In this document: positions 225 through 29,446 of the stretch, piece after piece
Layout: every line of letters starts with the position of its first letter
How positions within the stretch are numbered: position 1 is the first letter of the stretch
Assembly: GCA_016177705.1 (NCBI GenBank)
Contig: JACOUT010000005.1
Span: 158,374-222,373 of the forward strand
DNA from: Deltaproteobacteria bacterium
GTDB taxonomy: Bacteria; Myxococcota; UBA727; VGSZ01
DNA: 64,000 nucleotides
Direction: 5' to 3'
Notes under the pieces: model-generated
The model's input: only the letters and a program-made list of their open reading frames with translations
Database searches by the model: none
What the model was told of the DNA's origin: nothing
Program-made: the position numbers and the translations under genes

Positions 225-1964
225 TTGCGAGCACTCCCCATCGAGCGTCACCACTTGGAAGGCGACCGAGCTGCCGACGTCGACGAAGTCCTCGGGGGCC
301 GCGTTCTCCTCGGTGAGCACGGTCAGGTCCTCGATGAGCCGGGCGGCCGCCGCGGGGTCGAGGCGTTGGAAGAAGGCGCGCGGCGACTCGTCGGCGTGCC
401 TGGTAGCGGCGTAGTGGTCGAGCAGGCGATCGATCGCCTGCGGCACGCGGCGCACCGGCACCCGCGCCACCACCCGCCCGAATACCGCGCCTCGCTCGTC
501 GACGCCGCCGCCGATGGAGAGCTGATACTGCGGCGCCAGCTTGCCTCCGACCTTGCGCACCGCGCCCTGCAGCCCGATGGTCGCGACGTGGTGCTGGCCG
601 CAGCCGTTCGGGCAGCCCGACACCTTGATGTCCGCCTGGGCCGCGGCGCCCGAGTCGGCGTCGATCTGCCGCAGGTGGTCGCCGACGAGCTGGGCCACGC
701 CGCGCGAGGCGGTGACGGCGATGCGGCAGGTCTCCGCACCCGGGCAGCTCGTGACGTCCGACACGCGTTCGGCGTGCGCCTCACCGAGCCCGTGCGCGTC
801 GAGCCCGAGCCACAGCGGGTAGAGCTGCTCGTCCGCCACCCAGCGCAACAACAAGTTCTGCCCGACGGTGGTGCGCGCTGTGCCGTCGCCGTGCCGCTCG
901 CACAGATCGGCGACCGCTCCGAGCTGCGAGGCCGAGATGTCACCGAGGCGCAGGAACACGGTGGCGGACAAGAAGCCGGTCTGCCGTTGCTCACGCACCT
1001 GGGCGTCCCGCCAGGCGAGGAAGCGCGCCGGCAGCGGATCGGCGGCCGGGGCATGCCGGGGGTGACGCGGCGGCTCCTCGTCGGCGTCGTCGACGGCGAA
1101 GGGCCGGCCGCCGGCGGCGAGCACCGCCTCGAGCTCGCGGCGGTACGCGGCCCTGAACGCCTCCGGACCGAGCCGGTGCACCACCCACTTGAGGCGGGCC
1201 TTCTGCAAGTTGCCGCGGTCGCCTTCGGCGTTGAACACGCGCAGCACCGCCTCGCAGGCGGCCAGCAGCTGCTCGGGGGGCAGGTGCTCCTCGAGCACCA
1301 CGGCGGCGCGCGCGAAGGTGGCGGTGCCGCCGCCGGCGAGCACGCGGAAGACGCGCCGGCCCTCGCGCACGTGCGCGAGCACGCCGATGTCCTGCATGGC
1401 GCCGCGCGCGCAGTCGGCAGCGCAGCCCGACAGGTTGATCTTGAACTTGCGCGGCAGCCCCGAGCCGAGCGGGCCGCGCAGGAAGTGACGGGCGATGGCC
1501 TCGGCGTAGCCGGTGACGTCGACGTCGGCCTTGGCGCACACGCCCGCCTCGGCGCAGGCCACCACGTTCCTCACCGTGTGCGAGCAGGCCTCGCGGGTGG
1601 TGAGCCCGCAGCCCGCGAGCGCAGCCAGGAAGGGCGGCAGGTCGGCGGGCTTGACGAAGTGGAACTGGAAGTTCTGCCGCGTGGTGACGTGGCCGTAGCC
1701 GCGCGAGAAGCTGGTGGCGCAGTCGGCGAGCACGCGCAGCTGCGCTGCCGACAGCACGCCGGCGGGGACCTTGGCGCGCACCATGTGCACGCCGTCTTGG
1801 CGCTGTCCGTAGACGCCGCGCGACAGCCGGTACTGCCGGTAGTCGTCCGCGCCGATCTCGCCCTTCTCGAAGCGCTCGAGCATGAGGGCGAACTCGGCAG
1901 CTTCGCGCGCGTCACCGAAGCTCTGACGGTGCCGATCGGGCAGGGGGCTCGCTGGGGCGTCCAT
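222..1964 (-). CDS. sir: Ferredoxin-type sulfite/nitrite reductase hemoprotein (siroheme, 4Fe-4S)
   Basis: 580-aa ORF with two nitrite/sulfite-reductase ferredoxin-like half domains. It carries the Cys cluster motifs ([16 protein letters not shown]). It is translationally coupled to cysH downstream. Confidence 0.85.
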
Positions 1965-2012
1965 CGCGCGACCTCGTGGTGCCTACGGTTCAGCACCAAA
2001 GTACCCCGACAT

Positions 2013-2044
2013 CCGTTAAAGTCAACGTGATATCCTATTTAACG
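2013..2044. promoter_or_regulatory. 8-bp inverted repeat (CCGTTAAA ... TTTAACGG) in a low-GC intergenic region upstream of sir-cysH
   Basis: ccgttaaagtcaacgtgatatcctatttaacgg was read directly from the sequence. It lies in the only AT-rich stretch between the sir start (1964) and the K+ channel stop (2184). Confidence 0.35.
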
Positions 2045-2183
2045 GACACCGGGGAAACGGCGACGCATCAAGAAAACGTCTATTTATCAATCGGTTCCAT
2101 TGAAAGGCCGGATCGGCGCTCCGCGCGGTGCGCCCAGAGATCCGATGGGATCCGCTATGACGGACGACCGACCAGCGACCCCG

Positions 2184-3206
2184 TCACGCGGGCTGGGCGA
2201 GCTGCTCCAGCCGATCGAGGTCGCGGCGGTGGCCGAGCGAGATCAGCGTGTCGCCGCGCTCGAGCACGGTGGCGCCGCCCGGGTTGAACTCCATGTTGCC
2301 CGACAGGCGCTTGATGGCGACGACGATGATGCGCTGCTCGCGCGTCATCGACTCCGACAGCTTCTTGCCGATCAAGCTGCTGCCCTCGCGCACCAGCGTC
2401 TCCTCCATCTGCAGCTCGATGTGCTGGCTGCGCGTGGCCAGGTCGATGAAGTCGAGCACGCTCGGGCGCAGCACCGCCTGCACCACGCGACTGCCACCCA
2501 GCAAGTAGGGCGCCACCACGCGGTTGGCGCCGGCGCGTGTCAGCTTCACCTCGCTGGCCGGATCCTCGGCGCGCGCCACCACGAAGATCTTGTCGTTGAG
2601 CAGCTTGGCCGACAGCGTGATGAACAGGTTGTCGGCGTCGTGCGGCACCGCGCTCACCAAGGCGCGCGCGCGCTCGATGCCCGCCTTGCGCAACAGCTCG
2701 TCCGAGGTGGCGTCGCCCTCGAGCGCGACGCCGACGCGTACCGGGAAGTGCTCGATCAGCTCGTGGGCGCGGTCGATGACCACGAAGGGCTGGTTCGCCT
2801 GCGCCAGCTCGTCGCAAATGATGCGGCCCATGCGCCCGTAGCCGCACACGATCACGTGGTCCTTCAGGGTGGTCAAGATGCGCTCCTGGCGCTGTCTGCC
2901 GAGGAGGCGCTGGACCTCGCCGGAGACGATGGCGCGGATGACGGAGGTGACGGCGGCGGCCATGGTGAAGGCGCCACCCAGGATGAGCGCGATGGTGAAC
3001 AGGCGCCCGCTCTGGCCGAGCGGGTGCGTCTCACCAAAGCCGACGGTGCCGAGCGTGATCACCGTCATGTAGAGCGAGTCGAACAGCGACCAGCCCTCGA
3101 GCACGTGGTAGCCGGCCGTGCCGGCCGCGACGAGCAGCACCGGCAGCGAGGCGGCGAGCAGGATGCGCCGCGCCACCGGGTCGAGGAAGATGCGGATGCG
3201 GTTCAC
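2184..3206 (-). CDS. RCK/TrkA-N-gated potassium channel (two-TM pore with a TVGFGE selectivity-filter-like motif, then a NAD-binding RCK domain)
   Basis: The protein has an N-terminal TM region and the pore motif VITLGTVGFGE. A Rossmann VIVCGYGRMGR (TrkA-N) follows. Its start overlaps the stop of the FliG-like gene by 4 nt. Confidence 0.8.
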   Translation of the reverse strand: MNRIRIFLDPVARRILLAASLPVLLVAAGTAGYHVLEGWSLFDSLYMTVITLGTVGFGETHPLGQSGRLFTIALILGGAFTMAAAVTSVIRAIVSGEVQRLLGRQRQERILTTLKDHVIVCGYGRMGRIICDELAQANQPFVVIDRAHELIEHFPVRVGVALEGDATSDELLRKAGIERARALVSAVPHDADNLFITLSAKLLNDKIFVVARAEDPASEVKLTRAGANRVVAPYLLGGSRVVQAVLRPSVLDFIDLATRSQHIELQMEETLVREGSSLIGKKLSESMTREQRIIVVAIKRLSGNMEFNPGGATVLERGDTLISLGHRRDLDRLEQLAQPA

Positions 3207-4216
3207 CCGCGCGCCTCATACGCGATGGGCGCCTGGCCGTAGCGCGCGTCGATCTTGCCGCGACGCGACAGGTTGACGACGACGTCGAGCATGTGGTCGC
3301 GCAGCCGCCGCAACTGCGCATCGTCGAGCTCGCGCTCGCGCACGCGATCGAGGTAGTCGCCGAGCAGCCGGCCGTGCGCGCGCGGGAAGCGCTGCGCGAG
3401 CTGGCGGATGGTGATGGCGTCCTCCACCGAGATGGCGCGCGCCAGCCGATACAGCCCCGCCTTCTGCAGCAGCTCGTCGGTGTTCGAGAAGTTGCCGAGC
3501 ACCTTGGCCAAGAAGCCGCGCGCCGCCTTGATCTCCATCTGGTCCTTGAAGTCGGCGCGCTTGACCGCGGCGATCACCTCCTCGGCGTCCTCGGAGGGGA
3601 TGCGCTGCAAGAACTCGGCGAGCGCGCGCTTGCCGACGGCGAGGAAAGCACACGCGATCTCGTCGGCGCCGATATTGCGCGCCACGATCACGAGCTCCTT
3701 GGCCGACAGCACCACCAGGTCGCCGAACGACAGCTCGGCGAGGTCGCGCTCGAGCGGCATGGAGGCGAACTTGGCGTCGAAGCGCGCGCGCACCAGCTTG
3801 ACCACCTCGATGGGCACCTTCTTGAGCGACTCGCGCGGTGGCATCGCCTCCTGCACCGCCTCGGGCAGGCGCTGCGCCACCTGTCGCGCGATCGACGAGG
3901 GCATGTGCATGAGTGCGATCGCCACCACGCGCGGGCTCTCGCCCTTGAAGCCGGCTGCGAGCCAGCTCGGCTCGACGCCCTCGAGCCCCTTCATGGCGCG
4001 GAAAGTCATGAGCTGTTTCAGCTCGCGCACCATGAGGGGGATGCGCTTGTCGCGCGGGATCTCGTCGAGCTTCTTGGCCTTGTCGGCCAGCGCCTGTGCT
4101 TCTTCCTCGGGTAGGAGCGCGAACAGCTCGCGGCCGCCGGAGCCGCCGAACGCGAGCAGCGCGAGCAGCAGCGTCTGCTGGCGGCGGTCGAGCGGGTGCA
4201 GGAGGCGCGCGAGCAT
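3203..4216 (-). CDS. FliG-like (flagellar rotor / MgtE-N-like) domain protein
   Basis: The segment LSFGDLVVLSAKELVIVARNIGADEIACAFLAVGKRALAEFLQRIPSED aligns by eye with FliG middle/C-terminal helices (FVFEDILKLDDRSIQLVLREVDTRDLALALKGASDELKEKIF). A second FliG-like helical repeat lies upstream in the protein. Confidence 0.55.
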   Translation of the reverse strand: MLARLLHPLDRRQQTLLLALLAFGGSGGRELFALLPEEEAQALADKAKKLDEIPRDKRIPLMVRELKQLMTFRAMKGLEGVEPSWLAAGFKGESPRVVAIALMHMPSSIARQVAQRLPEAVQEAMPPRESLKKVPIEVVKLVRARFDAKFASMPLERDLAELSFGDLVVLSAKELVIVARNIGADEIACAFLAVGKRALAEFLQRIPSEDAEEVIAAVKRADFKDQMEIKAARGFLAKVLGNFSNTDELLQKAGLYRLARAISVEDAITIRQLAQRFPRAHGRLLGDYLDRVRERELDDAQLRRLRDHMLDVVVNLSRRGKIDARYGQAPIAYEARG

Positions 4217-4241
4217 CGCCGAAGGTCAGCGCCCGTCGGTC

Positions 4242-5162
4242 TCAGGCCGGCGGCGGCTGCAGGCCGGTCTGGGTGGCGCGGCCGGCCTTGCGCACCGACG
4301 CCAGCTCGGCCTCGGCCTTGGCGACGCGCTTCTTCAGGCCCATGGAGCGCACCAGGCCGCCCATGCCGAAGGCGATGCCGAGCACGGTGACTGCCAAGAA
4401 GCCGACGGCGAACAGCTGCAAGCGCTGCCAAGAGCCCTTGTCGGCGAGCTTGAGCCCGAAGGCGGTGGCCGCCGCCGGCGCCTGCTCGACCGCGCTCGAC
4501 GAGACCACGTCGTCAATCAGGTTGCCGGGCGCGTTCTTCTTCATCACGACCGTGACGTTCGGCGGCCGCAGGTCCTCGATGGAGGCGGCGACCAGGTTGC
4601 GCACCTCGTCCTCCTTGACGGTGGCCGAGCCGCGCTCGTCGATGGCGTTGTAGACGATCGCGACCGACGCGGTGGCGGGCGGCGGCGGCGTGTCGAGGTC
4701 GCGCACGATGTCCTTGTCGGGCTGCACCACCGACACGTGCGCCTGCACGATGCCCGGCAGCGCCTTGAGCTTGCGCTCGATCTCGCCCTGCATGGCCATC
4801 AGGAACTTGGCCTTCTCCTCGCTCTTGGTCGGGATCAGCCCCCCGCCGCCCGGCGGATAGACCTCCTTCAGGCCCTGGCTGCGCGTGCGGGGGAGCTTGT
4901 TGGCGACCAACAGGCGCAGCGCGTCGTCGACGTCGACGTCCTTGACCAGCACGGCGAAGGTGACCACCCGGCCCTCTTCCTTGATCTTCTCGCCGTCGAT
5001 GCCCTTGGCGCGCAACACCACCAGGATCTCGTTGGCCTCGAGCTGGTCGAGGCCGCTGACGATGTCGTGGCTCGGGCCGCAGCCCGAGGCGAGCGCGACC
5101 GCGCAGGCGAGAAACACCCACAGCAGCCTTTGGGTGCGGGTGGTGGTCGGCAGGGAGGTCAT
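4242..5162 (-). CDS. SctJ/YscJ/PrgK (FliF-N)-family inner-membrane ring lipoprotein
   Basis: Starting at the ATG at 5162 the protein has a lipobox signal (LLWVFLACAVALASGC) and YscJ-like ring-building motifs (ILVVLRAKGIDGEKIKEEGRVVTFAVLV). A single C-terminal TM follows (LQLFAVGFLAVTVLGIAFGMGGLV). This is the classic SctJ architecture. Confidence 0.7.
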   Translation of the reverse strand: MTSLPTTTRTQRLLWVFLACAVALASGCGPSHDIVSGLDQLEANEILVVLRAKGIDGEKIKEEGRVVTFAVLVKDVDVDDALRLLVANKLPRTRSQGLKEVYPPGGGGLIPTKSEEKAKFLMAMQGEIERKLKALPGIVQAHVSVVQPDKDIVRDLDTPPPPATASVAIVYNAIDERGSATVKEDEVRNLVAASIEDLRPPNVTVVMKKNAPGNLIDDVVSSSAVEQAPAAATAFGLKLADKGSWQRLQLFAVGFLAVTVLGIAFGMGGLVRSMGLKKRVAKAEAELASVRKAGRATQTGLQPPPA

Positions 5163-5402
5163 GACCGTCCTCGTTCGGCGGGTGCGCCAGGTTGGGGCGC
5201 GCCCGGTGGGGAAGTCTCCGCCATCCGCCTTGCCCGTGTCGAGCGCCGGGCGCCGGGCAGGGCACCGACCGGAGGGGGTCCAGGACGTGAGACAAGCACA
5301 GTGAGACAGTGGGTGGCGCTTTTGCCGGGGAACAACTGCGCCGTTACACTTTGTTGAGATCAGCCGACCGCCCCCCGCTGATCCGACGGTGAGGTATCTG
5401 CC

Positions 5403-6287
5403 ATGCGCTGCACCTTCTCCCCCGAGTCTGGACCGCAACCCACCGCCTGCGGCATGGGCGCAGGGCGCGAGCGCTGCCTGTTCACCTCGGTGATGATGCT
5501 CGGAGGCCTGTTCGGGCTGATGGCCTCACCGGCCGTGCGGCTGCCGTTCGTCACCATGTTCGTGGTCATCGGCATCCCGCTCTTGACCTTCGCGGTCGCC
5601 GCTCCTTCGCGGCTCGGTCTGACGCGCGAGCTGGGGCTGCTGCTGCGCGGGCTCGAGGCCTCGCTGCTGTCGATGCTGCTCGCCGTGGTCGGCCGCTTCG
5701 ACGACGCGCGCGCCGTGCTGCTGCGCCAACGCGTGCGCGTCGAGAACGCGTACGCGTCGGGCACAGGGCCGCTCGCCCAGATCGTCGCCTCTGACCCGCT
5801 GCGCCTGCACCACCTGCGGCGGCTCGGCATGCTCGGCGCCGTGCTCGCGGTGGTCGCCGGCAACGCGCTGCCGCTGGTGTTCCCGCAAACCTACACCTGG
5901 GGCGACGACGCCGGCGCCATCGGCGTCTTCGTGCTCGACGTGCTCACCATTGGCCTCGCCTCGCGGCTGGTGAGCGAGCGCATGGCAGTCCGCCTGCTCG
6001 AGACCACGCACGCGCTTGGTGGCGGCACGGTGTGGGGCGCGCGCGCCCGCGTGGTGCCGCTCGCAACCATGCTCGGCACCGCGATGGGCGCCGTCGGCGC
6101 GCTGGTGGTGCTCGCCACCGCGGCGGCCGCCTCCGCCGTCGAGACCTCTTGGTTGTTCGAGACCGACATGGTCGCGGCCGGCCTGTGGTTCATCCGCGAG
6201 ACGGCGCCCTTGGCGCTGCCGCTCGGCGTCGGCATCGGTGGCGTCATGGGTGCCGCCGCGGGCTTGGCTCAGCCACCCCAGCGCTGA
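5403..6287 (+). CDS. Hypothetical polytopic membrane protein
   Basis: The ORF has several hydrophobic helices (e.g. FVTMFVVIGIPLLTFAVAAP). It is divergent from the SctJ-like gene. The start is uncertain and may be the internal Met near 5493. There is no family-level match. Confidence 0.4.
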   Translation: MRCTFSPESGPQPTACGMGAGRERCLFTSVMMLGGLFGLMASPAVRLPFVTMFVVIGIPLLTFAVAAPSRLGLTRELGLLLRGLEASLLSMLLAVVGRFDDARAVLLRQRVRVENAYASGTGPLAQIVASDPLRLHHLRRLGMLGAVLAVVAGNALPLVFPQTYTWGDDAGAIGVFVLDVLTIGLASRLVSERMAVRLLETTHALGGGTVWGARARVVPLATMLGTAMGAVGALVVLATAAAASAVETSWLFETDMVAAGLWFIRETAPLALPLGVGIGGVMGAAAGLAQPPQR

Positions 6288-6373
6288 CCTCTCGGTCACT
6301 ATTCGCGACGTGATCCCCGCCTCCGCACAGGCGGGGATTGTCGTTTTCGCTGCGCTGGGCGACAAAGACCTAC

Positions 6374-7213
6374 ATGAACCGCCATCGCGACGACGTCGAG
6401 CTGCTGTTGGACCACGTCCGGCCAGTGCAGGCGCGGACCCGCATGACGCGGCTGCCGTTCTTCAAGGTCGTGTTGATTACGCTGGAAGAGGCGGTGCGGG
6501 CCGTGGTCGGGCTTGCGCGCGGGCGCGCCAACCTGGAGCTCGGTGACGAGCTGCTGCGTGACTGGTGGCCGCGCGTGTTCCGCTCGGGCAACGCCAGCCT
6601 GCGCGCGCGCGGCCGCGCGCACTTCGTCCCCGGTCAGGCCTACGTAGTGATGTCGAACCACTGCTCGGCCCTCGACATCCCCGCCATCGTCGGGGCCGTG
6701 CCCGCCTCGGTGCGCATGGTGACCAAGCAGGAGCTGATCAACGTGCCCTTGTGGGGCTACGCCATGCACAAGTGCGGCTTCGTGCCGGTCGATCGCAAGA
6801 ACCGCGTCAAGGCCATCCACCAGCTCGACGAGGCCAAGGCGCTCCTGCGCAAGGGCGTCTGCGTGTGGATCTCGCCCGAGGGCACGCGCTCGCGCGACGG
6901 CAAGCTGGCGTCGTTCAAGAAGGGCGGCTTCCACCTCGCGTTCGACCTCGGCGTGCCCATCGTGCCGGCGTGGGTCGACGGCACCGAGGGCATCATCGCG
7001 GCCGCTCGCCTGAACGCGCGCGAGGACGGCGAGGTCGAGGTGCGCTTCGGCGCGCCCATCGCTACGGCCGGGCTGGGCAAGGCCGACATGAAGCCAATGA
7101 TGGCGGAGGTGCGCGCCCGCATCCTCGCCCTGTCGGGGCGCGCGGCGCAGGTCGACGCCGAGGTGGGCGCCGTCGCCGACGTCGTGCGGCCACGCGTGCG
7201 CAAGGCGAGCTGA
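6374..7213 (+). CDS. 1-acyl-sn-glycerol-3-phosphate acyltransferase (PlsC family)
   Basis: Carries the HXXXXD acyltransferase motif (SNHCSALD) and the PEGTRS box (ISPEGTRSRDG). The ATG is at 6374; the ORF caller started at the TTG at 6338. Confidence 0.75.
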   Translation: MNRHRDDVELLLDHVRPVQARTRMTRLPFFKVVLITLEEAVRAVVGLARGRANLELGDELLRDWWPRVFRSGNASLRARGRAHFVPGQAYVVMSNHCSALDIPAIVGAVPASVRMVTKQELINVPLWGYAMHKCGFVPVDRKNRVKAIHQLDEAKALLRKGVCVWISPEGTRSRDGKLASFKKGGFHLAFDLGVPIVPAWVDGTEGIIAAARLNAREDGEVEVRFGAPIATAGLGKADMKPMMAEVRARILALSGRAAQVDAEVGAVADVVRPRVRKAS

Positions 7214-8602: not shown

Positions 8603-8707
8603 GCCGCCTGCTCACACGCCGCTACCGGCCAGGCAAGGCACGTCGACGAGCGGCCGGCCTCCAGCGTGGCGCTTTCGCGCGCGCGCCCGGTGTGGCAACG
8701 AGTCCTC

Positions 8708-9565
8708 ATGCGGCCCGTCCTCTTCGAGGTCTTCGGCGCGACCGTGCACAGCTACCCGACGCTGGTGGCGCTCGCCACCGTGGTCGGCGTGCTGGTGGGC
8801 GTGACGCTCGGGCGCAAAGACGGCAGAGCGTGGCGCGACCTCGTCGACCTCGCCATCGTGGTGGTGGTGGGCGCGTTGCTCGGCGCCAAGGTCTTTCACA
8901 CGGTGTTCGAGGCCGAGGGCCACCACCTCACCGACGGGCGCATCGCCCGCGGCGTGCTCGACCTCTTGGCCGACGATCCGTGGCACTGGGCGCGGCTGTT
9001 CGAGGCCGGCTACGTCTTCTACGGCGCCGTCGTGGGTGCGTTCCTCATCGGCTGGCTGTTCATGGTGCGGCGGGCGCTGCCCGACCGATGGAGCGTCGGC
9101 GACTACGCCACGCCCGCCCTGCTCGCCGGCATCTTCCTCGGTCGCGTCGGCTGCTACCTCGGTGGTTGCTGCTATGGCCGCGCCACCGACGTGCCGTGGT
9201 CCGTCACCTTCCCTGCTGGCCACGCCGCGGCCGGCGCGTCGGTCCACCCGGTGCAGCTCTACGACGCCGCCTTCGGGCTCGTGGGTCTCGTCGCCGTCGC
9301 GCTGCTCTACCGGCGGCGCCGCTTCGGCGGCGAGGCGCTGTGCGCGTTCTTCGTCGGCTACGCCGTCTATCGCTTTGCCACCGAGCTGGTGCGCGCGGAC
9401 GCCGACCGTGGCCTTTGGCTCGGTGGCACGCTGTCGACGTCGCAGTTGGTGGCGCTCGCCACCTTGCCGGTGGCGCTTTTCGCTTGGTGGCGCGGCCTCG
9501 CGCTGGCGCGTGCCGGCAAGGTGCGCAAGCCGAGCGAACCGCTCCCTCAGGAAGGCCCCTCATGA
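8708..9565 (+). CDS. lgt: Prolipoprotein diacylglyceryl transferase
   Basis: Translation from the ATG at 8708 shows the Lgt signature region (LGRVGCYLGGCCYGRATDVPWSVTFP) and a multi-TM profile. Confidence 0.85.
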   Translation: MRPVLFEVFGATVHSYPTLVALATVVGVLVGVTLGRKDGRAWRDLVDLAIVVVVGALLGAKVFHTVFEAEGHHLTDGRIARGVLDLLADDPWHWARLFEAGYVFYGAVVGAFLIGWLFMVRRALPDRWSVGDYATPALLAGIFLGRVGCYLGGCCYGRATDVPWSVTFPAGHAAAGASVHPVQLYDAAFGLVGLVAVALLYRRRRFGGEALCAFFVGYAVYRFATELVRADADRGLWLGGTLSTSQLVALATLPVALFAWWRGLALARAGKVRKPSEPLPQEGPS

Positions 9566-9984
9566 TCACCGTCGCCCTCGCCCTCACGCTCGCGGCCGGC
9601 CCCGATCCCTGCGCGGGCGTGGTCGACAGGACGCCGGCGTGCGTCGCCCCGGACGACGTCGCCGCCACGCTCGCGCCCGACGGCGGCGCCAAGGACGCCG
9701 CCGCCGGTGCAGCCGGCGTCATCAAGGCCGAGCAGATCCCGTCCAAGCTCGCGCTGGTCGCCGCCGCGCTCGGCATCGGCGGCACCGCCGCCATCAGCGC
9801 CACCTACGCGGTGACGCCGCCGGACGAGACCGCCGACGAGCGGCAGCTCCGCAAGGTGGTGCGCCTCGGCGGCGTGTCCGTGCTCGCGATCTCGGGGCTG
9901 GTCGGCGGCGCTGCGCTCGCGCTTGCGGTGTTCGATCCGTCGACGGGCGCGCCGCGCTACCGCTTGATCGAGGACAACGAATGA
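9562..9984 (+). CDS. Small hypothetical signal-peptide protein with a C-terminal TM
   Basis: Its ATG overlaps the lgt stop (ATGA). It has an N-terminal hydrophobic signal and a C-terminal TM (VLAISGLVGGAALALAVF). Confidence 0.45.
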   Translation: MITVALALTLAAGPDPCAGVVDRTPACVAPDDVAATLAPDGGAKDAAAGAAGVIKAEQIPSKLALVAAALGIGGTAAISATYAVTPPDETADERQLRKVVRLGGVSVLAISGLVGGAALALAVFDPSTGAPRYRLIEDNE

Positions 9985-10991
9985 GCGGCGCCCTGCTCGC
10001 GCTCGCGCTCGTCGTCGGGGCCGCGCCCGCCGCGCCCTCGGCGCCGCCCGCAGTGGTGCTGTTGCCGCTCGTCCCCGACGGCACCACCAGCGTCAAGCAG
10101 GCGCGCGGCATCACCGCCCAGTTGCGCGACGCGCTCGTGTCGGGGCCGACCGCCGATGGTCTGTGCACGATGCTGTCGGCCTCGAAGGACGACGACAAGC
10201 AAGCCGAGCGCTGCCGGCGCGACGCCGGCTGCCTCGGTGAGGTGGCGGCGCTGCGCGGCGCCGACGTGATGCTGGCGGGTGTGATCGCTCCCGGCGCCGA
10301 CGGCCTGGTGGTGTCGCTGGTGGCGGCAGCCCCGTCCGCCAAGGAGGCGCTGCGCCGGGTGGAGGTGACCTTGCGCGGCGATGCCGGCGATGCGCGGCGC
10401 ATCGATCGCGTGGTGCGCAGCGCCGTGGGGCCGCACGCGCTACGCGGCAAGCTGGCGCTGACCGGCGACGAGGGCGCCACCGTCACGCTCGATGGGGTGG
10501 CGCGCGGTGTGCTGCCGCTCACGGAGCCGCAGGCCAAACCGCTGTCCGTGCTGGTGGAGGGCGAGCACGACCTGCTCGTCGAGAAGCCCGGCTTCGAGCC
10601 CTATCGGCGCCCTGTGGCCATCGTCCATGCCGAGACCGTCGAGGTGAAGGCGACGCTGTTGCCGCTGACGAGCGGCGACCGCGCGCGCGTGCCCGACGGC
10701 GCCGGCGGCGCCGCCAGCGACGGGCCGCCGCTCGACGTGCTGGTGGTGGGCGGCGTGGGCGCCGGTTTGGTGGCGCTCGGCGCCGTCGCCGGCACGTGGA
10801 GCCTGCTCGACGCGCTGGCCGTGCAGGCGCGCGCAGAGGAGCAGCAGCTCCTGTTCCCGCGCGACGCCGGGCTGCTGCTGCGCGGCCAGATCCTGGCGTG
10901 GACGGCGGACGGCCTCTACCTCGTGGGCCTGGGCGCGCTCGGCGTCGCCGGCGCGCTCGCCTTGCTGACGCCCGCGGAGCCGCAGCCGTGA
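9981..10991 (+). CDS. PEGA-domain secreted protein
   Basis: ATGA-coupled to the previous gene. It has a signal peptide and a PEGA-like motif (LLVEKPGFEPYRRPVAI), with a C-terminal TM. Confidence 0.5.
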   Translation: MSGALLALALVVGAAPAAPSAPPAVVLLPLVPDGTTSVKQARGITAQLRDALVSGPTADGLCTMLSASKDDDKQAERCRRDAGCLGEVAALRGADVMLAGVIAPGADGLVVSLVAAAPSAKEALRRVEVTLRGDAGDARRIDRVVRSAVGPHALRGKLALTGDEGATVTLDGVARGVLPLTEPQAKPLSVLVEGEHDLLVEKPGFEPYRRPVAIVHAETVEVKATLLPLTSGDRARVPDGAGGAASDGPPLDVLVVGGVGAGLVALGAVAGTWSLLDALAVQARAEEQQLLFPRDAGLLLRGQILAWTADGLYLVGLGALGVAGALALLTPAEPQP

Positions 10992-12109
10992 CCGCGCTCG
11001 CGCGCGCGGCGCGCTCCTCGGTGGCGCTGGCGCTGATGGTGGCGCCGCTGCTGGTGAGCGCGCCAGGCTGTTTGTTCCTGCCCAACCTCGCCGGCCACGG
11101 CTACACGCCGTGCGACGACGACAGCGCCTGCCCGCCCGGACGCTTCTGCGACGAGTCGCTGTGCGCGCCGCCGCCGTGGCACGACCAGGCCTTCGGCAGG
11201 CGCCGCGCCGTCATCGTCGCCAACCCGGCCGCCTCGCCCATCCCGGCGGGCGCGGCCGTCCCCATCGTCGTGGGCGGTGAGACCGGCGTGCTCGCGCTCG
11301 CCGAGCTGGGCGCGTCCTTTCGCTTCACCGACTACGATCGCGCGAGCGCGTCGTGGCGCGTGGTGTCGGTCTACCTCGACCGCGAGAGCGACCGCTTCAC
11401 CGCCTGGATCCCCACGGCGCGCGAGATCCCGGCGGGGGGCAGCGCCCTGCTCGCCTTCGTCGAGAGCAACGCCGCTGACGGCCTGCCGCACGTGAGCGAA
11501 GATCCGGCGGCCACGTTCGCCCAGTGGCAGGCGTTCGACGCGCCGCTCGCCGACGACACCTGGTTCCAAAGCCCCGCCGGCGGTCCCGTGGTGCAAGACG
11601 GCATGGTCAACGTCGCCGACAACCAGGCGATCGTGCTGCAAGCGCCGCTGGTGCCGCCGGTGCTCGCCGTGCTGGTGGCGCGCATCAACGGCGCCACCTG
11701 CGACGAGGTCTTCTTGGGCCTGGTCGGCGACGACCGCGCGCTCTTCCAGGTGCCGCCCGAGGCGGGCATCTTCGTCGGCAGCAACCTCCAGGGCACGGCT
11801 CAGCTTGCACCGACGTCGGACAGCACGCCCACCGACGTCGGCGACGGGCTGACGGTGGTCAACGCCATGGCGCGCACCGTAGTGGCGATCGACGGCGGCG
11901 CCGTGCTGGTCGAGCACGCGGGCGCCACGGCCTTCGCCGACCCCGATCTCCGCCCGCCGTTCGGCGCCGACCCGCTCTACCTGGCGGTACAAGTCGGCGG
12001 CGCCTGCTCGGTCGACGTCGACGCGGTGTGGACCACGCCGCTGCCGCAGCCGTTCCCCACCGTCACCGTCGAGGCGCCGGTCGACTTCAACCTGGCGTAC
12101 GAGAACTGA
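10988..12109 (+). CDS. Hypothetical lipoprotein
   Basis: Likely starts at the GTG at 10988, overlapping the previous stop. It has a lipobox (LLVSAPGCLF). There is no recognisable family match. Confidence 0.45.
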   Translation: MTALARAARSSVALALMVAPLLVSAPGCLFLPNLAGHGYTPCDDDSACPPGRFCDESLCAPPPWHDQAFGRRRAVIVANPAASPIPAGAAVPIVVGGETGVLALAELGASFRFTDYDRASASWRVVSVYLDRESDRFTAWIPTAREIPAGGSALLAFVESNAADGLPHVSEDPAATFAQWQAFDAPLADDTWFQSPAGGPVVQDGMVNVADNQAIVLQAPLVPPVLAVLVARINGATCDEVFLGLVGDDRALFQVPPEAGIFVGSNLQGTAQLAPTSDSTPTDVGDGLTVVNAMARTVVAIDGGAVLVEHAGATAFADPDLRPPFGADPLYLAVQVGGACSVDVDAVWTTPLPQPFPTVTVEAPVDFNLAYEN

Positions 12110-12763
12110 GAGAGCTCATGCCGCAGAAGCCGCGCCTGCTCGTCGTGGAAGATGACAGCTCCATCGCCGCCGGGCTGCGCATGAACTTGCGGCACGAGGG
12201 CTTCGACGTGGTGGTGGCGGCCGACGGCGAGGCTGGGCTGCGCGAGGCGTTGGCCAACCCGCCCGACTTGATCTTGCTCGACGTCATGCTGCCGGTGATG
12301 AACGGCTTCGAGGTGTTGCGCGAGCTGCGCCGCCGCGGCTGCACCGCCGGGGTCATCATGCTCACCGCCAAGGGCCTCGAGGAAGACAAGGTGCTCGGCC
12401 TCGACCTCGGCGCCGACGACTACGTGCAGAAGCCCTTCGGCCTGCCCGAGTTGATCGCCCGCGTCCATGCGGTGCTGCGGCGCCGGCAGGCGCAGGCGCC
12501 GGCCACGGTCTGCTTCGACGATGTAGTCGTCGATCGCCATGCGCGCACCGTCACGCGCGCCGGTGCGCCGGTGGAGCTGTCGCCGCGCGAGATGTCGCTC
12601 CTGTTGTTCCTGGTCGAGCACCCCGGCCGCGCCGTCACGCGCAACGCGCTGCTCGAGGGCGCTTGGGGGCTCGACTACGAAGGCACCGAGCGCACCATCG
12701 ACAACTTCGTGGTCTCGCTCAGAAAGAAGCTCGAGCAGGACCCTGAGGCGCCGCGTCGCTTCG

Positions 12764-14335
<1,572 letters not shown>

Positions 14336-17384: not shown

Positions 17385-18472
17385 GTGACACCATAGCTAC
17401 CCACGGGACGAACGCCGCGATCCTCGGGCTCGGCATCCATCTACCGAACGAGGTACGCGCCAACTCGTGGTGGCCCATTGGCACCGTCGACCGATGGCGC
17501 CAGCGCGCGTCGGCGAAGATCTCCGATGGACGCGCCGACGAAACCGCGCGCATGACGCCGAACCAGCGCCGCGTGCTCGAGGCGATGGCGCAAGAGCGTG
17601 ACGACCCGTTTCGCGGTGCGCGCGAGCGCCGCGTGATGGACCCGGCCCAGCGCTCGTCCGACATCGAGACGCTGGCGGCACGTGAGGCCATACAGCAAGC
17701 GGGCGTCGCGCCGGCCGACCTCGACTTCGTGTTGGTGCAGTCGGCGGTGCCGGACTTCCTCAACACACCCAACGCCGCCTTCGTGCACCAGAAGCTCGGC
17801 CTCAAGGACGCGTGCTTCAGCCTGCAGACCGAGGGCATGTGCAACTCGTTCCTGCTGCACCTGACGCTCGCCGACAAGCTGCTGCGCGGCGGCATGGGCA
17901 AGCTCGGGCTCATCGTGCAGTCGTGCGGCATGTCGCCGACGCTCGATCCCGAGGAGCCGCACTCCGCCTGGTTCGGCGACGCGGCCAGCGCGGCCGTCGT
18001 CGGCTTGGTCGAGGGGCGCGGCCTGCTGTCGCAGGCGCACGGCACCGACAGCTCGCTGTCACCTTCCATCGTCTACGGCGTGCCTGGCGGGCGCTGGTTC
18101 GACGCAGGGCGCACGGTGCCGTACCTCGAGAACCAGAAGAACGGCTTCCTGATGCTGCTCAACTCGGCGGACCTGGTGGCCAACGGCATGCGCCAGGCGC
18201 TGGCGCCGCTCGGCATGAGCGCGGAGGACGTCGAGTTCTACGGCGCCCACCAGGCGACGCCCTGGTTCCGCCGGGTGACGCAGCAGGCGGCCGGCATGAC
18301 GAACGCGCGCTTCGTCGACACCTTCCCCTGGGCGGCCAGCGTGGTCGGCTGCAACGTCCCACTCGGTCTCGCCGTCGCGGCGCGCGAGGGCATGCTCAAG
18401 AGCGGCATGCTGGTGGGCGCATTTTCGGGGTCGCCCGGAGTAACCTGGACCGCGGCGGTCTACCGCTGGTGA
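17381..18472 (+). CDS. KAS-III (FabH)-like condensing enzyme
   Basis: It is ATGA-coupled to the ThDP enzyme. It has a thiolase-fold KAS III pattern with candidate Cys (EGMCNSF), His (GAHQATPWF) and Asn (GCNVPLG) catalytic positions. Confidence 0.7.
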   Translation: MSDTIATHGTNAAILGLGIHLPNEVRANSWWPIGTVDRWRQRASAKISDGRADETARMTPNQRRVLEAMAQERDDPFRGARERRVMDPAQRSSDIETLAAREAIQQAGVAPADLDFVLVQSAVPDFLNTPNAAFVHQKLGLKDACFSLQTEGMCNSFLLHLTLADKLLRGGMGKLGLIVQSCGMSPTLDPEEPHSAWFGDAASAAVVGLVEGRGLLSQAHGTDSSLSPSIVYGVPGGRWFDAGRTVPYLENQKNGFLMLLNSADLVANGMRQALAPLGMSAEDVEFYGAHQATPWFRRVTQQAAGMTNARFVDTFPWAASVVGCNVPLGLAVAAREGMLKSGMLVGAFSGSPGVTWTAAVYRW

Positions 18473-18518
18473 GGAGGGAGCGGCCATCGTCGACACGAGC
18501 ACCATCGAGGACGACGCC

Positions 18519-18998
18519 GTGACCGTGCGCGCCGCGGCCAACGCGCTCTACGTGCGGTGGCGCGCCACGCCCACGATCGCCCGGCTGCAGGGGATCCTCG
18601 AGCGCGTTGAGTCGGTCGCGCGGACGTACGGCCGGCCCATCGCCTTCATCATGGAGCAAGACGCGAGCGCGGGCGCGCCCGATGCCGAGTTCCGGCGACG
18701 TTCGGTCGAGGCGGTCGACTCTGTCGGCCATGCGATCGCCTGCCTCGCGATGGTGACGCGGGCGAGCGGGCTGCGCGCCGCAATCCTGCGCAGCGTGCTC
18801 ACCGGCATCACCTTCCTCGCCCGGCGGCAGTTCCCAGTCAGGGTCTTTGCCGGCCTCGACGAGGAGGCTCAGAACTGGATCGTCGGCCACGCCGACGGCG
18901 ATGAGCACGCGCGCTCCGAGCTGCAGGCGCTGCTGCGCGAGGTCGAGCAGGAGCACACGCAAGCGAGCGCCGCCTCAGGCCCCGCCGAGCGGTCGTAG
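18519..18998 (+). CDS. Hypothetical protein
   Basis: It follows the KAS-III-like gene on the same strand, 47 nt downstream, as a GTG-start ORF. There is no recognisable domain. Confidence 0.35.
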   Translation: MTVRAAANALYVRWRATPTIARLQGILERVESVARTYGRPIAFIMEQDASAGAPDAEFRRRSVEAVDSVGHAIACLAMVTRASGLRAAILRSVLTGITFLARRQFPVRVFAGLDEEAQNWIVGHADGDEHARSELQALLREVEQEHTQASAASGPAERS

Positions 18999-20229
18999 CC
19001 CACCCTCGCTTACCGCGTACCAGCCGGGCGCCGCGTCCGCCTTGACGCGCGCGAGCACGCGCCCCGGCTCGCCCACCAGCTTGACGCCGCGCGGGATGGC
19101 GCGACCGGCCGCGATCGCCACGTCGGCGCCGACGAACACGTCGGGCCCGAAGGCGGCGCCGCACGGCAGCTCGCCGGCCTCGCGCAAGGTGCCGCCGTCG
19201 TCGACCTTGACCTGACCGCCCGGGGTCAGGTCCTGCGGCCGAGCGAACGAGGTGAGCGCGCAGCGCGGCCCGATGACGCACGCCTGGACGCCGTTGGCGC
19301 ATGCGTCGGTGTCGCCGAAGGTGACGCACGCCGACAGCGACGAATTGAGCGAGACGAAGGTGCGCGGGCCGAGCGCGCAGCCGTTCAGGTGCGCGCGCTG
19401 CTCGATGACGCAGCCGTCGCCCACCACCGAGTTCCGCAGGTACGCATAGGCGCCAACGCTGACGTCGTCGCCGAGCACGCAGGCCTCCACCGTCGCGGTC
19501 GGGTGGATCGAGACGCGCTTGCCGGTGAACACCAGGCGCCCGGGCAGCGCGCGCAGCGTCGCCGCCCGCGACAGACGAAGCGCGGGTAGGCACCGCAGCG
19601 AGGTGCGAACCGGCGTTGCGGCGGCGCGGTCCAGCAGCGCCACCTGCGGCGCCAGGTGCCCCGCGCGCAGCACGTGCAGCCAGTGACGCACCCGTAGCGC
19701 CACGGTGGACGTGAGCGGCCACGCGAGCGTGGGCGAGGCGCTGCCGAGGATGTGGCGCGGCACCGGCACCTCGAGCAGGCGCTCGCGGTAGCGCGGCGCC
19801 ACCCAGGCGTCCGCGCCGAGCGCGAACAGCTCCCGCGCCGTGGCGCGCGCGCCGGCGGGCACCATGGCGACGTCGAACGCCGCCCGCCCCTCGCCGTCGA
19901 TCGGCACGTCTTGCAGCGGCAGCGTCAGCTCGAGCAGGCGGGAGCGCGGCAGGCACAGGCGCGCGGTAGCGGCGCGGTCGGCGGTGGCGCGCAAGAAGCC
20001 GCGCAGCGCGCGGCGGGTCACCCAGACGTCGTCTCGCAGCACCAACGCCGGTCCTTCGACTAGCACCTCGTCGCCGAGCGCCGCGGGCAACGCGCCGGCG
20101 ACCAGCGGCGCCAGATCGCGTAGCGCGGCGGCGCGCGCCTGGGCGAGCGTGCCCGCGCCGATGGGTACCTCGTCGACGGCGCAATCGAACGGCGCGATGC
20201 GCGCGCCGCTCGCCACCAGCACGACCCTC
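18975..20229 (-). CDS. Nucleotidyltransferase with a C-terminal left-handed beta-helix (hexapeptide-repeat) domain
   Basis: Its GTG at 20229 overlaps the glmU stop (GTGA). The C-terminal half is hexapeptide-rich (VGAYAYLRNSVVGDGCVIEQRAHLNGCALG...). The 900-aa ORF in this frame is a read-through artefact. Confidence 0.55.
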
Positions 20230-24633: not shown

Positions 24634-27528
24634 TCACTCGCGCTCGATGATGCTCGTGAGGAAGTCCTCGGGCGATGCGTAGAGCACGGCGGTGGTGCAC
24701 GCGGCGGCGCTCGAGAAGGAGCCGGCGGCGAGCGTCACCGTCAACGCGCCGTCGCCGTAGCCGACGGTGGAGAGCCCGAGCGCCGCCTCGCGATCGTCGT
24801 CGACGTCGAGCGCGAGCGCCCATGGTCCGCCCTCAGCCATGCCCGGGTGGTCTGCCGAAAACGCGGTGTGCACGGCGGAGCGTCGCTGGCCGGCGGCGGC
24901 GCCGAGCGCGGGCACGTCGGCGACGAAGTCGACGACCACGAAGGCGGCGAAGGGCACGACGCCGAAGCCGAGCTCGGGAGGCTTGAGCGGGTCGCTGAAG
25001 ACGTCGGTCACCGACGCCCGCAAGGCGCCTGCGTCGCACGTGCGTTGCTCGACGCGGCGCGCGCGCGCCAGCAGATCTTGCGGGATCGGCATGTTGCGCA
25101 CCGTGGTCGGCACGCGCAGCAGGCTCGGCTCGAGCGTGCGCGCCTGCTTGATGACGACGCGCGAACCGGCGAGCGTGCCGTCGGCATAGGCGGGCCAACC
25201 GTCGGCCACCTCGCGTAGCTCGAAGTCGATGGTGAGCGTGCTGCGTTGCTGGCTGACCGCCAGCGCCGCGTTGTCGACCGCGAGCCACAGCTCGGTCACG
25301 CGGCGCGCCTGCTCGAACACGCGCAGCAACTGGGTGCTCGTGAGCACGGTGTGCTTCGGCGGCAGCAGCGTGGACCCGCGCACGCGCTGGATGTGCACCA
25401 GGCCGTCCTCGTCGAGCACCAGCCGGTCGACCTCGGGCAGGTTTGGATCGCCCGGCGGCGGGTTGGTGACCGACAGCGCGCCCTCTTGCGCGTTGACCTC
25501 GAGCACCGCGGCGCCGTCAGGGTGCCCCGTCGGCAGGATGGTGTAGGTGAAGACGCCATTGCCGAGCTCCAGCTCATCCTGGAAGTTCGGGTGCACCACC
25601 AAGCCCATGGCTCCCGACAGGTGCGCCACGTTGGCCAGGCGGCGCTCCTCGAACGCCTCGCTGCCCCAGTAGGAGGCCCAGGTCTCGAGGATCGCGTGCT
25701 CGACGGTCAGCCCCTGGCGCGAGGGGTCGAGGCGGTCCGCGTGCAAGTAGCCGGTGTTCGAGGTGTACAAGCCGGCGCCGTTGAAGCCCTCGGCGTCCTC
25801 CACGTTCGACGACGAGCGGAAGCGCAGGCCCTGGCCGTCTGCCAGGTTGCCGTAGGCGGCCAGCAGCTCGGCTTCGATGGCGTCGAGCGCCACCGGGTCG
25901 ATCGGCTTGTTGCGGACGCGCCCTTGCGCGCCGCCGGCCTCGACCAGGATGCGCCGCGGATCGGAGGCGGGGTAGAGCGCGAGGAAGCGCTCGGCGTAGG
26001 TCGGATCATCCGGGTGCTTGACGGCCCATTGGTCTGGTCCCTCGAGCAGGAGCGCGCGCCGCAGCGGATCCTGGTTGAACAGCGGATCGGCCAAGATGGG
26101 CTCGAGCTCGTCCACGAGGTCGACCGTGTGCTCCATGTTGGCGCGCACCGAGATGCCGATGGGTCGCGGCGGCGTGACGACGTCGACGGCGTCGAGCAGC
26201 GCGAGGAAGCCGGTGGACTTGCCGCCGAGGATGGGCCGCCAGCTCGCCTGGTCCGCGAACGAGAGCTCCTCGAGGCGATAGACGTACTCGATGCTGTTCG
26301 GATCGACCGGCGTCACCGAGGTCGGCGGCACGGCGGTCAACTGGCGATACTGCGTGTACTCCTGCTCGGTCATGGGCGCGACGTCGAGCAGGTCCGGTGT
26401 CTGCGCGCGCACCACCACCGGCGCAAACACGCGCGCCAGCGCGTCGATCTCCGGATCGTCGAGGATGCCGCCCCGATAGGCGTTGGGGATGCCGCGGTTC
26501 TTGGCCAGGATGTTGACGTGCGCGAGCGCCGTCTGCGGCACCGAGGTGATCAACCCCGCGCACTGCGGCAGGAAGTCGGGCACGTCTTCCAGCACCAACA
26601 GGTCGGTCGAGCGCGCGCTCTCGAAGTCGCCCTCGCCGGCGCGGATCACCCGCAGGCGCCCGGCCACGAGCCCTGGCGAGTAGACCTCGGTCTCGCCCGG
26701 CACGGTGACGTCGGAGAAGCGCAGGATGCGCGCGGCCAGCGGCGAGCCCGCGTCCTCGAGCGCCTGCGCGAGCTGCTCCTGCTGTGGCGAGCGCACCAGC
26801 AACTTGAGCAGCGGGCCGACGTCAGCCGGCAGACCCGCGCCCACCATGTCGAGCAGCGACTGCAGCTCCACTTCGTCGAGCGCGTGCTGGTACTCGAGCT
26901 CCATGGCCCACAGCTCCGGCCGTGGCGGCGTGAGGTCGGGGCGCGCCGCGAAGCGCAGCACCGTGCCGATGCCGAGCACCTTCGGCTGTTGGAAGAGCGC
27001 GAGCTGGTAGAAGTGCGGTGAGTACAGGCGCCCGTCGCCCACGAACTGCAAGTCCAGCGGCAGCGCGCTCTGCTGGCGCGCCCACGAATAGATGTCGGCG
27101 ACGGTCTCGAAGTTGCGGCCGAGGTCGACCGGTTGCGTGTCGACCCGATCGACGGGCACGTTGTTGAGCAGGCGGTACCAGTACCACTCGTCGTGCAGCG
27201 TGTAGGCGGCGCTGTCCATGAAGCGAAGCTGCGGGCTCGGCTGCAAGAAGCCCGTGATGACGAACTTGACGGCGGTGGACGACGCCGAGGGGGCGGCGAA
27301 TGCCTCGAACGCCTCGACGTCGGCGAACGACGACGTGGTGAAGTCCTCGAACCCGTCGGAGCCGCCGTCCGGGCCGGCGTCCGGGCCGGGCAGCGGCGGA
27401 CAGCCCTGCGGGCACGCCGCTCCCCAGGCGACGGAGAAGCAGCTCATGAGAACTGCAGGCAGCAGCGACGGCCGGTGAGCGCGCGGAAAGCTGGTCACGT
27501 TGAGCCCTCGGGAAGCATCGCAGGCCAC
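24634..27528 (-). CDS. Large signal-peptide protein with PEP-utilising / pyruvate-phosphate-dikinase-N (ATP-grasp-like) domains
   Basis: A PPDK_N-like nucleotide-binding domain is present (ILGGKSTGFLALLDA...RFRSSSNVEDAEGFNGAGLYTS). A possible swivelling phospho-histidine-like segment is present (GLITSVPQTALAHVNILAKNRGIP). The N-terminus has a hydrophobic signal (SLLPAVLMSCFSVAWGAA). Confidence 0.55.
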   Translation of the reverse strand: MACDASRGLNVTSFPRAHRPSLLPAVLMSCFSVAWGAACPQGCPPLPGPDAGPDGGSDGFEDFTTSSFADVEAFEAFAAPSASSTAVKFVITGFLQPSPQLRFMDSAAYTLHDEWYWYRLLNNVPVDRVDTQPVDLGRNFETVADIYSWARQQSALPLDLQFVGDGRLYSPHFYQLALFQQPKVLGIGTVLRFAARPDLTPPRPELWAMELEYQHALDEVELQSLLDMVGAGLPADVGPLLKLLVRSPQQEQLAQALEDAGSPLAARILRFSDVTVPGETEVYSPGLVAGRLRVIRAGEGDFESARSTDLLVLEDVPDFLPQCAGLITSVPQTALAHVNILAKNRGIPNAYRGGILDDPEIDALARVFAPVVVRAQTPDLLDVAPMTEQEYTQYRQLTAVPPTSVTPVDPNSIEYVYRLEELSFADQASWRPILGGKSTGFLALLDAVDVVTPPRPIGISVRANMEHTVDLVDELEPILADPLFNQDPLRRALLLEGPDQWAVKHPDDPTYAERFLALYPASDPRRILVEAGGAQGRVRNKPIDPVALDAIEAELLAAYGNLADGQGLRFRSSSNVEDAEGFNGAGLYTSNTGYLHADRLDPSRQGLTVEHAILETWASYWGSEAFEERRLANVAHLSGAMGLVVHPNFQDELELGNGVFTYTILPTGHPDGAAVLEVNAQEGALSVTNPPPGDPNLPEVDRLVLDEDGLVHIQRVRGSTLLPPKHTVLTSTQLLRVFEQARRVTELWLAVDNAALAVSQQRSTLTIDFELREVADGWPAYADGTLAGSRVVIKQARTLEPSLLRVPTTVRNMPIPQDLLARARRVEQRTCDAGALRASVTDVFSDPLKPPELGFGVVPFAAFVVVDFVADVPALGAAAGQRRSAVHTAFSADHPGMAEGGPWALALDVDDDREAALGLSTVGYGDGALTVTLAAGSFSSAAACTTAVLYASPEDFLTSIIERE

Positions 27529-27583
27529 CGATGCAAGCGCTACGCCCGTTGCCGTCGCGCGTCGGCACGCGACCTTGAGGGCG

Positions 27584-29401: not shown

Positions 29402-29446
29402 GATCGCACGATGCCGGTACGAACGCGCAAGCGTCCGTCGGCCCCG

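Follow-up and report, generated by a model that had tools for sequence, protein, structure and literature searches.

What is the role of a gene pair that encodes the inner-membrane ring lipoprotein of a secretion system and a relative of the flagellar switch protein FliG when no other secretion or flagellar genes surround it? The question is raised by a 64 kb window (positions 158,374 to 222,373 of contig JACOUT010000005.1, assembly GCA_016177705.1, a deltaproteobacterial genome assigned to Myxococcota), where an sctJ-like gene, a fliG-like gene and a gene for a K+ channel form a co-directional trio. The first-pass annotation regarded the first two as an orphan ring/rotor pair of a machine that is not involved in secretion. 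The analysis described here points in a different direction: the pair probably consists of the displaced SctJ ring and the FliG-homologous adaptor, in the slot of SctK, of a scattered, needle-less type III secretion system (T3SS) of the Myxococcota type. This interpretation is favored because the pair is conserved, members of the FliG-like family are also encoded within T3SS gene clusters, and T3SS genes are present in pair-bearing relatives.

The sctJ-like and fliG-like genes

The trio is encoded on the minus strand, with the sctJ-like gene at 4242-5162, the fliG-like gene at 3203-4216 and the gene for an MthK-like K+ channel with an RCK domain at 2184-3206. The products of 306, 337 and 340 amino acids (aa) are recovered with the same lengths in independent gene calls on identical Logan contigs, and the junctions are as tight as originally described, with 25 nucleotides (nt) separating the sctJ-like and fliG-like genes and a 4-nt overlap (GTGA) between the stop of the fliG-like gene and the start of the channel gene. 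In NCBI, the locus is represented in the metagenome-assembled genome (MAG) by locus tags HYS27_10470 and HYS27_10475. Genes for sulfite reductase, PAPS reductase and TauE follow 3' of the trio on the same strand, and a promoter and terminator scan of positions 1800-6400 returned nothing on the minus strand. In the window, 52 genes were called by codon-position GC content, and Pfam scans of the approximately 45 genes besides the trio detected no T3SS or flagellar families across the 64 kb; six-frame tblastn of the window with T3SS proteins from five related clusters likewise recovered the pair only, with SctV covered by the Pfam scans alone. The initial observation that the pair is isolated in the window is thus borne out. 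MotA/B, rod and hook families are missing both in the window, according to the Pfam scans, and in the related loci that were read.

The 306-aa protein is of the SctJ type, not of the FliF type. A Sec/SPII-type signal peptide with the lipobox sequence LASGC, which includes Cys28, is encoded at nt 5079-5162. It is followed by two ring-building domains in the periplasm (residues ~31-87 and 113-209), a low-confidence linker (residues 215-235), a single C-terminal transmembrane (TM) segment (residues ~246-272, nt 4347-4427, with the hydrophobic stretch also placed at 250-268) and a conserved cytoplasmic helical tail (residues 272-306, RSMGLKKRVAKAEAELASVRKAGRATQTG, nt 4245-4346), which is basic, amphipathic and about 35 residues long. 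An N-terminal TM segment and the third ring-building motif (RBM3) are lacking. The Pfam YscJ_FliF model (PF01514) matches the protein with 69.3 bits against a cut-off of 24.4 (4.9e-19), and the NCBIfam SctJ model TIGR02544 yields 130.5 bits, under its equivalog cut-off of 161.95, compared to only 26 bits for the NCBIfam FliF model. When a profile of 36 homologs, in which Cys28 is invariant and the C-terminal tail is conserved, was compared to the PDB, PrgK (3.8e-16), MxiJ and EscJ ranked above FliF (5e-8). The AlphaFold2 (AF2) model, with a mean predicted local distance difference test score (pLDDT) of 76.5, has two domains of alpha-beta-beta-alpha-beta topology and a single long helix at the C-terminus; the top Foldseek matches are MxiJ, PrgK and EscJ (E ~1e-13, target TM-score 0.63-0.68), and the first ring-building motif superimposes on PrgK residues 19-92 with a TM-score of 0.95. 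The initial assignment of the protein to this family holds.

The fliG-like gene encodes an all-helical cytoplasmic protein of 337 aa, in the SctK position, that is a distant homolog of FliG. Four parts can be delineated: an N domain (residues 1-75, nt 3992-4216); a FliG_M-like domain (residues 80-155, nt 3752-3979) with ESPR at residues 93-96 replacing EHPQ; a domain similar to the C-terminal bundle of FliG (residues 160-241, nt 3494-3739), which begins with an SFGDL/MFxF-like motif; and a family-specific C-terminal domain (residues 246-337, nt 3206-3481) that contains the invariant motif RFPRAHG and has no counterpart in FliG. A profile built from 56 family members matches FliG alone in the PDB (best 4e-7). 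Profile positions 73-142 align to FliG_M, with E93, P95 and R96 of the altered motif conserved, and the C-terminal helical bundle is matched, from the MFxF-like motif onward, by positions 159-240; the helix_MC/ARM_C segment of FliG is passed over. When aligned with Aquifex FliG by HMMER, the family consensus has E, A and A at the positions of the charged torque-helix residues for stator contact, which we take to be R281, D288 and D289 in Escherichia coli numbering. The AF2 model of the window protein (pLDDT 89) displays the three-domain N-M-C helical fold of FliG, the first twelve Foldseek matches are all FliG, and the fold is similar also to that of the solved SctK protein PscK (6UIE).

In terms of sequence families, the assignment requires some qualification. 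The description of the window protein as a FliG-like helical-repeat protein holds at the level of the family, by profile and by fold, whereas the protein's own Pfam FliG matches, which run in the order FliG_N, FliG_M, FliG_C, remain under the cut-offs, and TIGR00207 (FliG) yields 17.8 against a cut-off of 226.7. Some homologs exceed the cut-offs of single FliG domains, and many carry precomputed FliG domain matches. The family is well conserved and includes at least 146 clusters at 90% identity, with identities of 50-91%, all from metagenomes or MAGs and labeled Myxococcota or Deltaproteobacteria. When 1.84 billion representatives were searched exhaustively with the profile, only 544 matches at E up to 0.001 were returned; the family is small and distinct from canonical FliG.

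Conservation of the pair and the position of the channel

About 35 distinct loci were gathered by exact look-up and by scanning one genome per species as well as metagenomes, and their neighboring genes were mapped by tblastn. In approximately 20 of these loci (numbered with the prefix L below), the sctJ-like gene is located directly upstream of the fliG-like gene, down to 37% identity of the FliG-like proteins. The pairing is therefore a conserved unit that echoes the flagellar fliF-fliG adjacency. In one subclade, with FliG-like proteins of about 360 aa, the two genes have separated but both are retained, as in GCA_023248635.1 where they are 75 kb apart on one contig. A 411-aa Zn-ribbon protein encoded upstream of fliG-like in L006 was examined as a possible ring partner and ruled out given that it has no lipobox and no similarity to SctJ; the true sctJ-like gene of this genome is located 75 kb away. 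This subclade without an adjacent sctJ also has, in L006 (6042-7115) and L015 (5920-6498), a gene with weak similarity to SctL (22-26% identity, E 2e-5 to 3e-4) that is located about 3 kb upstream of fliG-like and may be a diverged sctL.

The most widely conserved neighbor of the sctJ-like gene in the clade is a gene for a 294-aa polytopic membrane protein with about six hydrophobic segments and no Pfam family, which is located at 5403-6287 on the plus strand of the window and is divergently oriented relative to sctJ-like. The same head-to-head arrangement is seen in L010-L014, L022, L025/L045, L028 and L037 (30-90% identity), and the gene also adjoins sctJ-like in L029, although fliG-like is there 75 kb distant. 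In a second subclade, it is replaced by a gene directly upstream of, and co-directional with, sctJ-like that encodes a membrane protein of about 700-745 aa similar to PMT_2 (L020 6946-9051, L024 6779-9016, L023 1-1788, L043 4354-6501 and L051 2-733). This large gene was considered as a candidate for SctV in L020 and L024 and was rejected because Pfam identifies the product as a PMT_2-like membrane protein of the glycosyltransferase type.

The channel has a much narrower distribution than the 294-aa protein. As initially proposed, it is a two-TM K+ channel with a C-terminal RCK domain, as shown by Pfam matches that are all above the cut-offs (Ion_trans_2 5e-17, TrkA_N 1e-32, TrkA_C 3.5e-11), the selectivity filter TVGFG at residues 54-58, and a full-length alignment with MthK over residues 10-335 (1.5e-29). 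It adjoins the pair only in the window and in L010, L011, L012, L036 and L037, where the FliG-like proteins are at least 76% identical to that of the window, and is not found beside the pair in any of the approximately 15 loci below 76% identity. Hence the pair is conserved but the triad, which had been put forward as a unit, is not. The suggestion that ring, FliG-like protein and channel form one ion-conducting or ion-gated complex could draw on the 4-nt start/stop overlap, which implies co-translation in this lineage, on the retention of the arrangement in the five related loci, and on the purifying selection that acts on the channel. Nevertheless, this possibility appears very unlikely: it is largely refuted by the neighborhoods, the channel is a complete, ordinary MthK-type protein with its own RCK gating ring, its ratio of nonsynonymous to synonymous substitution rates (dN/dS) is about twice that of the pair, and nothing beyond the local adjacency supports an ion-conducting or gating assembly. 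Most simply, the channel is a lineage-specific passenger that joined the operon at its 3' end in a single shallow clade and is co-transcribed with the pair but unrelated to it.

The dN/dS values, which were computed against two close relatives, are 0.08-0.16 for sctJ-like, 0.14 both for fliG-like and for the gene of the 294-aa protein, and 0.27-0.31 for the channel gene. These values imply that all four genes are functional, the channel being the least constrained, and, together with the protein architecture, argue against a decaying relic.

T3SS gene clusters that include FliG-like proteins

Distant members of the FliG-like family are encoded inside T3SS gene clusters. In L031, the gene order is sctF-like, sctJ, fliG-like, sctL, sctN, sctO, sctP, sctQ, fliO, sctR, sctS, sctT, sctU. 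The L030 cluster has a gene for an SctD-like FHA protein and, after intervening genes, sctJ and, further on, the series fliG-like, sctL, sctN, sctO, an additional gene, fliM, fliN, fliO, sctR, sctS, sctT. Shorter series are present in L035 (sctJ, fliG-like, sctL, sctN) and L052 (fliG-like, sctL, sctN, sctO, sctP, with no sctJ alongside). Thus, sctJ and sctL flank the family member in L031 and L035, and in L030 and L052 it immediately precedes sctL; in the window, fliG-like follows sctJ-like but there is no sctL. The embedded proteins align with the window protein from end to end, including the extra C-terminal domain, at 24-36% identity. The slot after the ring gene is occupied by fliG in the flagellar order fliF-fliG-fliH-fliI-fliJ and by sctK in the injectisome order sctJ-sctK-sctL. 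The sctJ-K-L synteny has also been shown in a recent preprint (bioRxiv 10.1101/2025.03.14.643159). The premise of the first-pass annotation that injectisomes have no FliG was accordingly too strong since related T3SS clusters hold a FliG homolog in the SctK slot.

Several of these clusters have additional features of note. L030 and L052 come from low-GC MAGs labeled Deltaproteobacteria (GC 0.39-0.41), and the presence of the clusters there indicates that the FliG-like family is not confined to high-GC Myxococcota. In L052, a gene for a phage-type integrase directly follows sctP. A protein of about 590 aa with weak matches to Helical_needle, Aq_493_lipo and MlaD is encoded after sctT in the L034 cluster (17430-19205), and its homologs are encoded directly upstream of sctJ in L049 (7553-9019) and L050 (4238-5716); it may be an undescribed periplasmic component of needle-less systems. 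No secretin was seen in the loci that were read.

The clusters also carry markers that are not flagellar, namely, an SctD-type FHA protein (Yop-YscD_cpl) in L030 and weak matches to T3SS_needle_F (SctF-like) and SepQ_C in L031. These markers are relevant to the possibility that the pair is a degenerate fliF-fliG remnant of a lost flagellum. The order of the two genes is indeed that of fliF-fliG, and the Joint Genome Institute (JGI) labels many homologs 'flagellar motor switch protein FliG'. Such an origin is scarcely credible all the same, given the SctJ architecture of the ring protein and the corresponding scores (130 bits for SctJ versus 26 bits for FliF; 4e-16 for PrgK versus 5e-8 for FliF), the replacement of the torque-helix charges, dN/dS values of 0.1-0.16 that argue against decay, and the non-flagellar markers in the clusters of the embedded relatives.

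In those genomes with a separate pair for which a link could be made, T3SS genes are found elsewhere. In GCA_043821645.1, the FliG-like protein of which is 52% identical to that of the window, the pair is located 4.3 kb from the cluster sctD (two FHA domains and TPR), sctN, sctO, sctP, a gene for a 512-aa protein, fliO, sctR, sctS, sctT, which lacks exactly sctJ and fliG-like of its own. On the 6.98 Mb JGI metagenome contig Ga0558120_00002, the pair (~5.31 Mb) and sctD-sctN (~0.81 Mb) are 4.5 Mb apart. In L019, sctL is located 9.5 kb from the pair, and in L020, sctO is located 9 kb from it. Between L034 and L035, identity decreases from SctN (77%) through the FliG-like protein (41%) to SctJ (33%), a gradient that fits one orthologous system with component-specific rates of evolution. 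Taken together, the arrangements look like one ancestral cluster that was broken at different points in different lineages. The pair is thus not an orphan in the sense originally proposed because its family is embedded in T3SS clusters and pair-bearing relatives carry sctD, sctN, sctO, sctP and sctRST elsewhere.

Proposed role of the pair

If the pair belongs to a dispersed T3SS, as appears probable, the T3SS core genes would be encoded elsewhere in the window's own genome. By analogy with PrgK, MxiJ and EscJ, the SctJ-like protein would be lipidated at Cys28 and form a two-tier periplasmic ring around the export gate, and its single C-terminal TM helix would place the conserved amphipathic tail, about 35 residues long, on the cytoplasmic side. 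In flagella, FliG_N binds the C-terminus of FliF, and in injectisomes, SctK binds the cytoplasmic FHA domain of SctD and the N-terminus of SctQ. The FliG-like protein might similarly dock at the base of the ring via the SctJ tail, the FHA domains of an SctD-like protein, or both, and its FliG_M-like domain, which retains the EHPQR motif in the form E-x-P-R, could hold the SctQ/FliM-like pods together with the SctL-SctN-SctO ATPase complex. It would not be a torque-generating rotor: the family has lost the charges of the torque helix and is not accompanied by stator genes.

Several observations weigh against this assignment. T3SS core genes were found neither in the 64 kb window nor in the 3.7 kb to its left, and most of the pair loci are free of T3SS genes for 10 kb in both directions. 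Among the 120 best matches to SctN, 20 were checked, and none of these has an accession in the HYS27 series of the window's MAG (MBI19461xx, which includes MBI1946112.1 and MBI1946113.1) or in those of its near-identical relatives RBG_16_71_12 (OGQ26...) and IT383 (MCC7071...). The Pfam models FliG_N, FliG_M and FliG_C (PF14842, PF14841 and PF01706) score 21.0, 23.6 and 22.2 bits on the FliG-like protein, against cut-offs of 25, 25 and 23.3, and the SctK families YscK, OrgA_MxiK and HrpB4 do not match it at E up to 0.1. Paralogy may also be involved, in the form of a genome that carries an embedded pair along with a separate one.

The isolation of the pair could alternatively mean that the T3SS core was lost in this lineage and that the SctJ ring and the FliG-like protein persist as an autonomous envelope scaffold, perhaps with the 294-aa membrane protein. 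Compatible with such repurposing are the lack of T3SS genes in the 64 kb and in the 10 kb flanks of most pair loci, the strong purifying selection, the persistence of the 294-aa protein beside sctJ-like over a wide clade even where fliG-like is gone, and the C-terminal domain with the invariant RFPRAHG motif, which is most conserved in the dispersed clade. We nonetheless consider a stand-alone ring unlikely: T3SS genes are present in every pair-bearing genome for which the link could be made, the L034 cluster lacks exactly sctJ and fliG-like, and the embedded and dispersed proteins share their entire architecture. The 294-aa protein is a possible unrecognized partner of the ring.

The assignment of the pair to a scattered T3SS leads to a further, more tentative proposal, to which we give somewhat less than even chances: the needle-less T3SS of Myxococcota might retain a true FliG homolog in the SctK slot, docked on the SctJ tail in the same manner as FliG on FliF, and would then represent a living intermediate between two junctions, FliF-FliG-FliM of the flagellum and SctJ/SctD-SctK-SctQ of the injectisome. 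If so, this would be direct evidence of the descent of SctK from FliG. A more radical variant, in which the ring-adaptor pair works without an export gate in the lineage of the window, is less likely.

Other genes in the window

Several additional genes in the window are worth mentioning. A plus-strand operon at 8700-12804 encodes Lgt, three proteins of 140, 336 (with a PEGA domain) and 373 aa, and a response regulator of the OmpR type; in L010, L012 and L014, synteny with the pair extends to at least the genes for the 140-, 336- and 373-aa proteins. Lgt, prolipoprotein diacylglyceryl transferase, is the enzyme that would lipidate SctJ, and a PEGA domain is present also in the SctD-like protein of the L030 T3SS cluster. 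At 60710-61783 on the plus strand, there is a gene for a Fic-domain protein with 31% identity (6e-32) to the product of the Fic gene located directly after the SctD-like gene in the L030 cluster; this protein could be a T3SS-associated effector or regulator, or else the similarity could be coincidental.

In myxobacteria, T3SS and Kil systems repeatedly have FHA proteins as partners. In the window, adjacent minus-strand genes (54697-57417) encode a 489-aa protein that combines an FHA domain with a sigma-54 activator and a protein of 352 aa that matches FHA weakly; tblastn of the window with SctD-like proteins showed no similarity at these FHA genes. Finally, an unannotated block at 24634-30481 on the minus strand encodes proteins of 937 and 605 aa without a Pfam family, adjacent to a 344-aa protein with a Lamin-tail domain.

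Comparison with known systems

The needle-less T3SS of myxobacteria are implicated in contact-dependent prey lysis in Myxococcus xanthus. These systems are known and functional (PMC3459982, PMC10433427). The non-flagellar T3SS (NF-T3SS) of Myxococcales denoted 'Myxo', or T3SS*, is early-branching, needle-less and explicitly without FliG (Abby & Rocha, 2012, PMC3459982), and for the T3SS* of M. xanthus (MXAN_2434-2464), SctD, J, I, Q, RSTUV, N and L are listed, with no SctK (PMC10433427). Full-text literature searches recovered no description of a FliG homolog in a myxobacterial T3SS or of a dispersed arrangement. A FliG-like role for SctK was hypothesized in 2014 (PMC4045390), and the SctK of Chlamydiota resembles the FliG, YscK and OrgA_MxiK families (2025 preprint, bioRxiv 10.1101/2025.03.14.643159).

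The systems described here resemble the Myxo NF-T3SS (T3SS*) in belonging to the same phylum and in the composition of the relatives' clusters, with SctJ, an SctD-like FHA protein, SctL, SctN, SctO, SctQ and SctRST(U), and no secretin seen. They differ in that the genes form small dispersed modules instead of one cluster and in that a FliG homolog follows sctJ, whereas the published systems, by their descriptions, have no FliG and no named SctK; the FliG-in-SctK-slot proposal, if correct, contradicts the published absence of FliG in Myxo systems. Unlike the needle-less systems, the related cluster L031 has a weak SctF-like match. In place of the apparent orphan machine, there emerges the testable picture of a large uncultured clade of Myxococcota in which the T3SS is organized in modules of two to ten genes and the adaptor is still recognizable as FliG. 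This bears on the needle-less myxobacterial T3SS outside cultured species as well as on the evolution of the sorting platform from the flagellar C-ring junction and thus on the origin of SctK. For annotation, the implications are that T3SS detection tools that depend on gene clustering will miss such systems and that the label 'Flagellar motor switch protein FliG' is misleading in non-flagellated Myxococcota.

The channel corresponds to MthK, the Ca2+-gated channel of Methanothermobacter (1LNQ), over its full length, with two TM helices, a pore and an RCK domain, and differs in the selectivity filter, TVGFG versus TVGYG. The pair itself shares with FliF/FliG (5TDY, 5WUJ, 3HJL, 8UMD) the order ring protein, FliG-type protein, FliH/SctL that is seen in the family, the N, M and C domain folds, the EHPQ-like motif in the form of ESPR and, on the side of the ring protein, a conserved cytoplasmic C-terminal helix. 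In contrast to FliF/FliG, the ring protein is of the SctJ type, the helix_MC/ARM_C segment is skipped, R281, D288 and D289 are replaced, stator, rod and hook genes are missing, and the FliG-like protein carries an extra C-terminal domain of about 95 residues. Compared to the SctK proteins YscK, OrgA, MxiK and PscK, the FliG-like protein has no SctK Pfam match, is about 130-160 residues longer and has recognizable FliG_N, M and C domains, so that both in sequence and in structure it is closer to FliG than to PscK. Thus, the kind of system is already known, and what is new is the combination of a true FliG homolog in the SctK position with a scattered organization of the T3SS genes.

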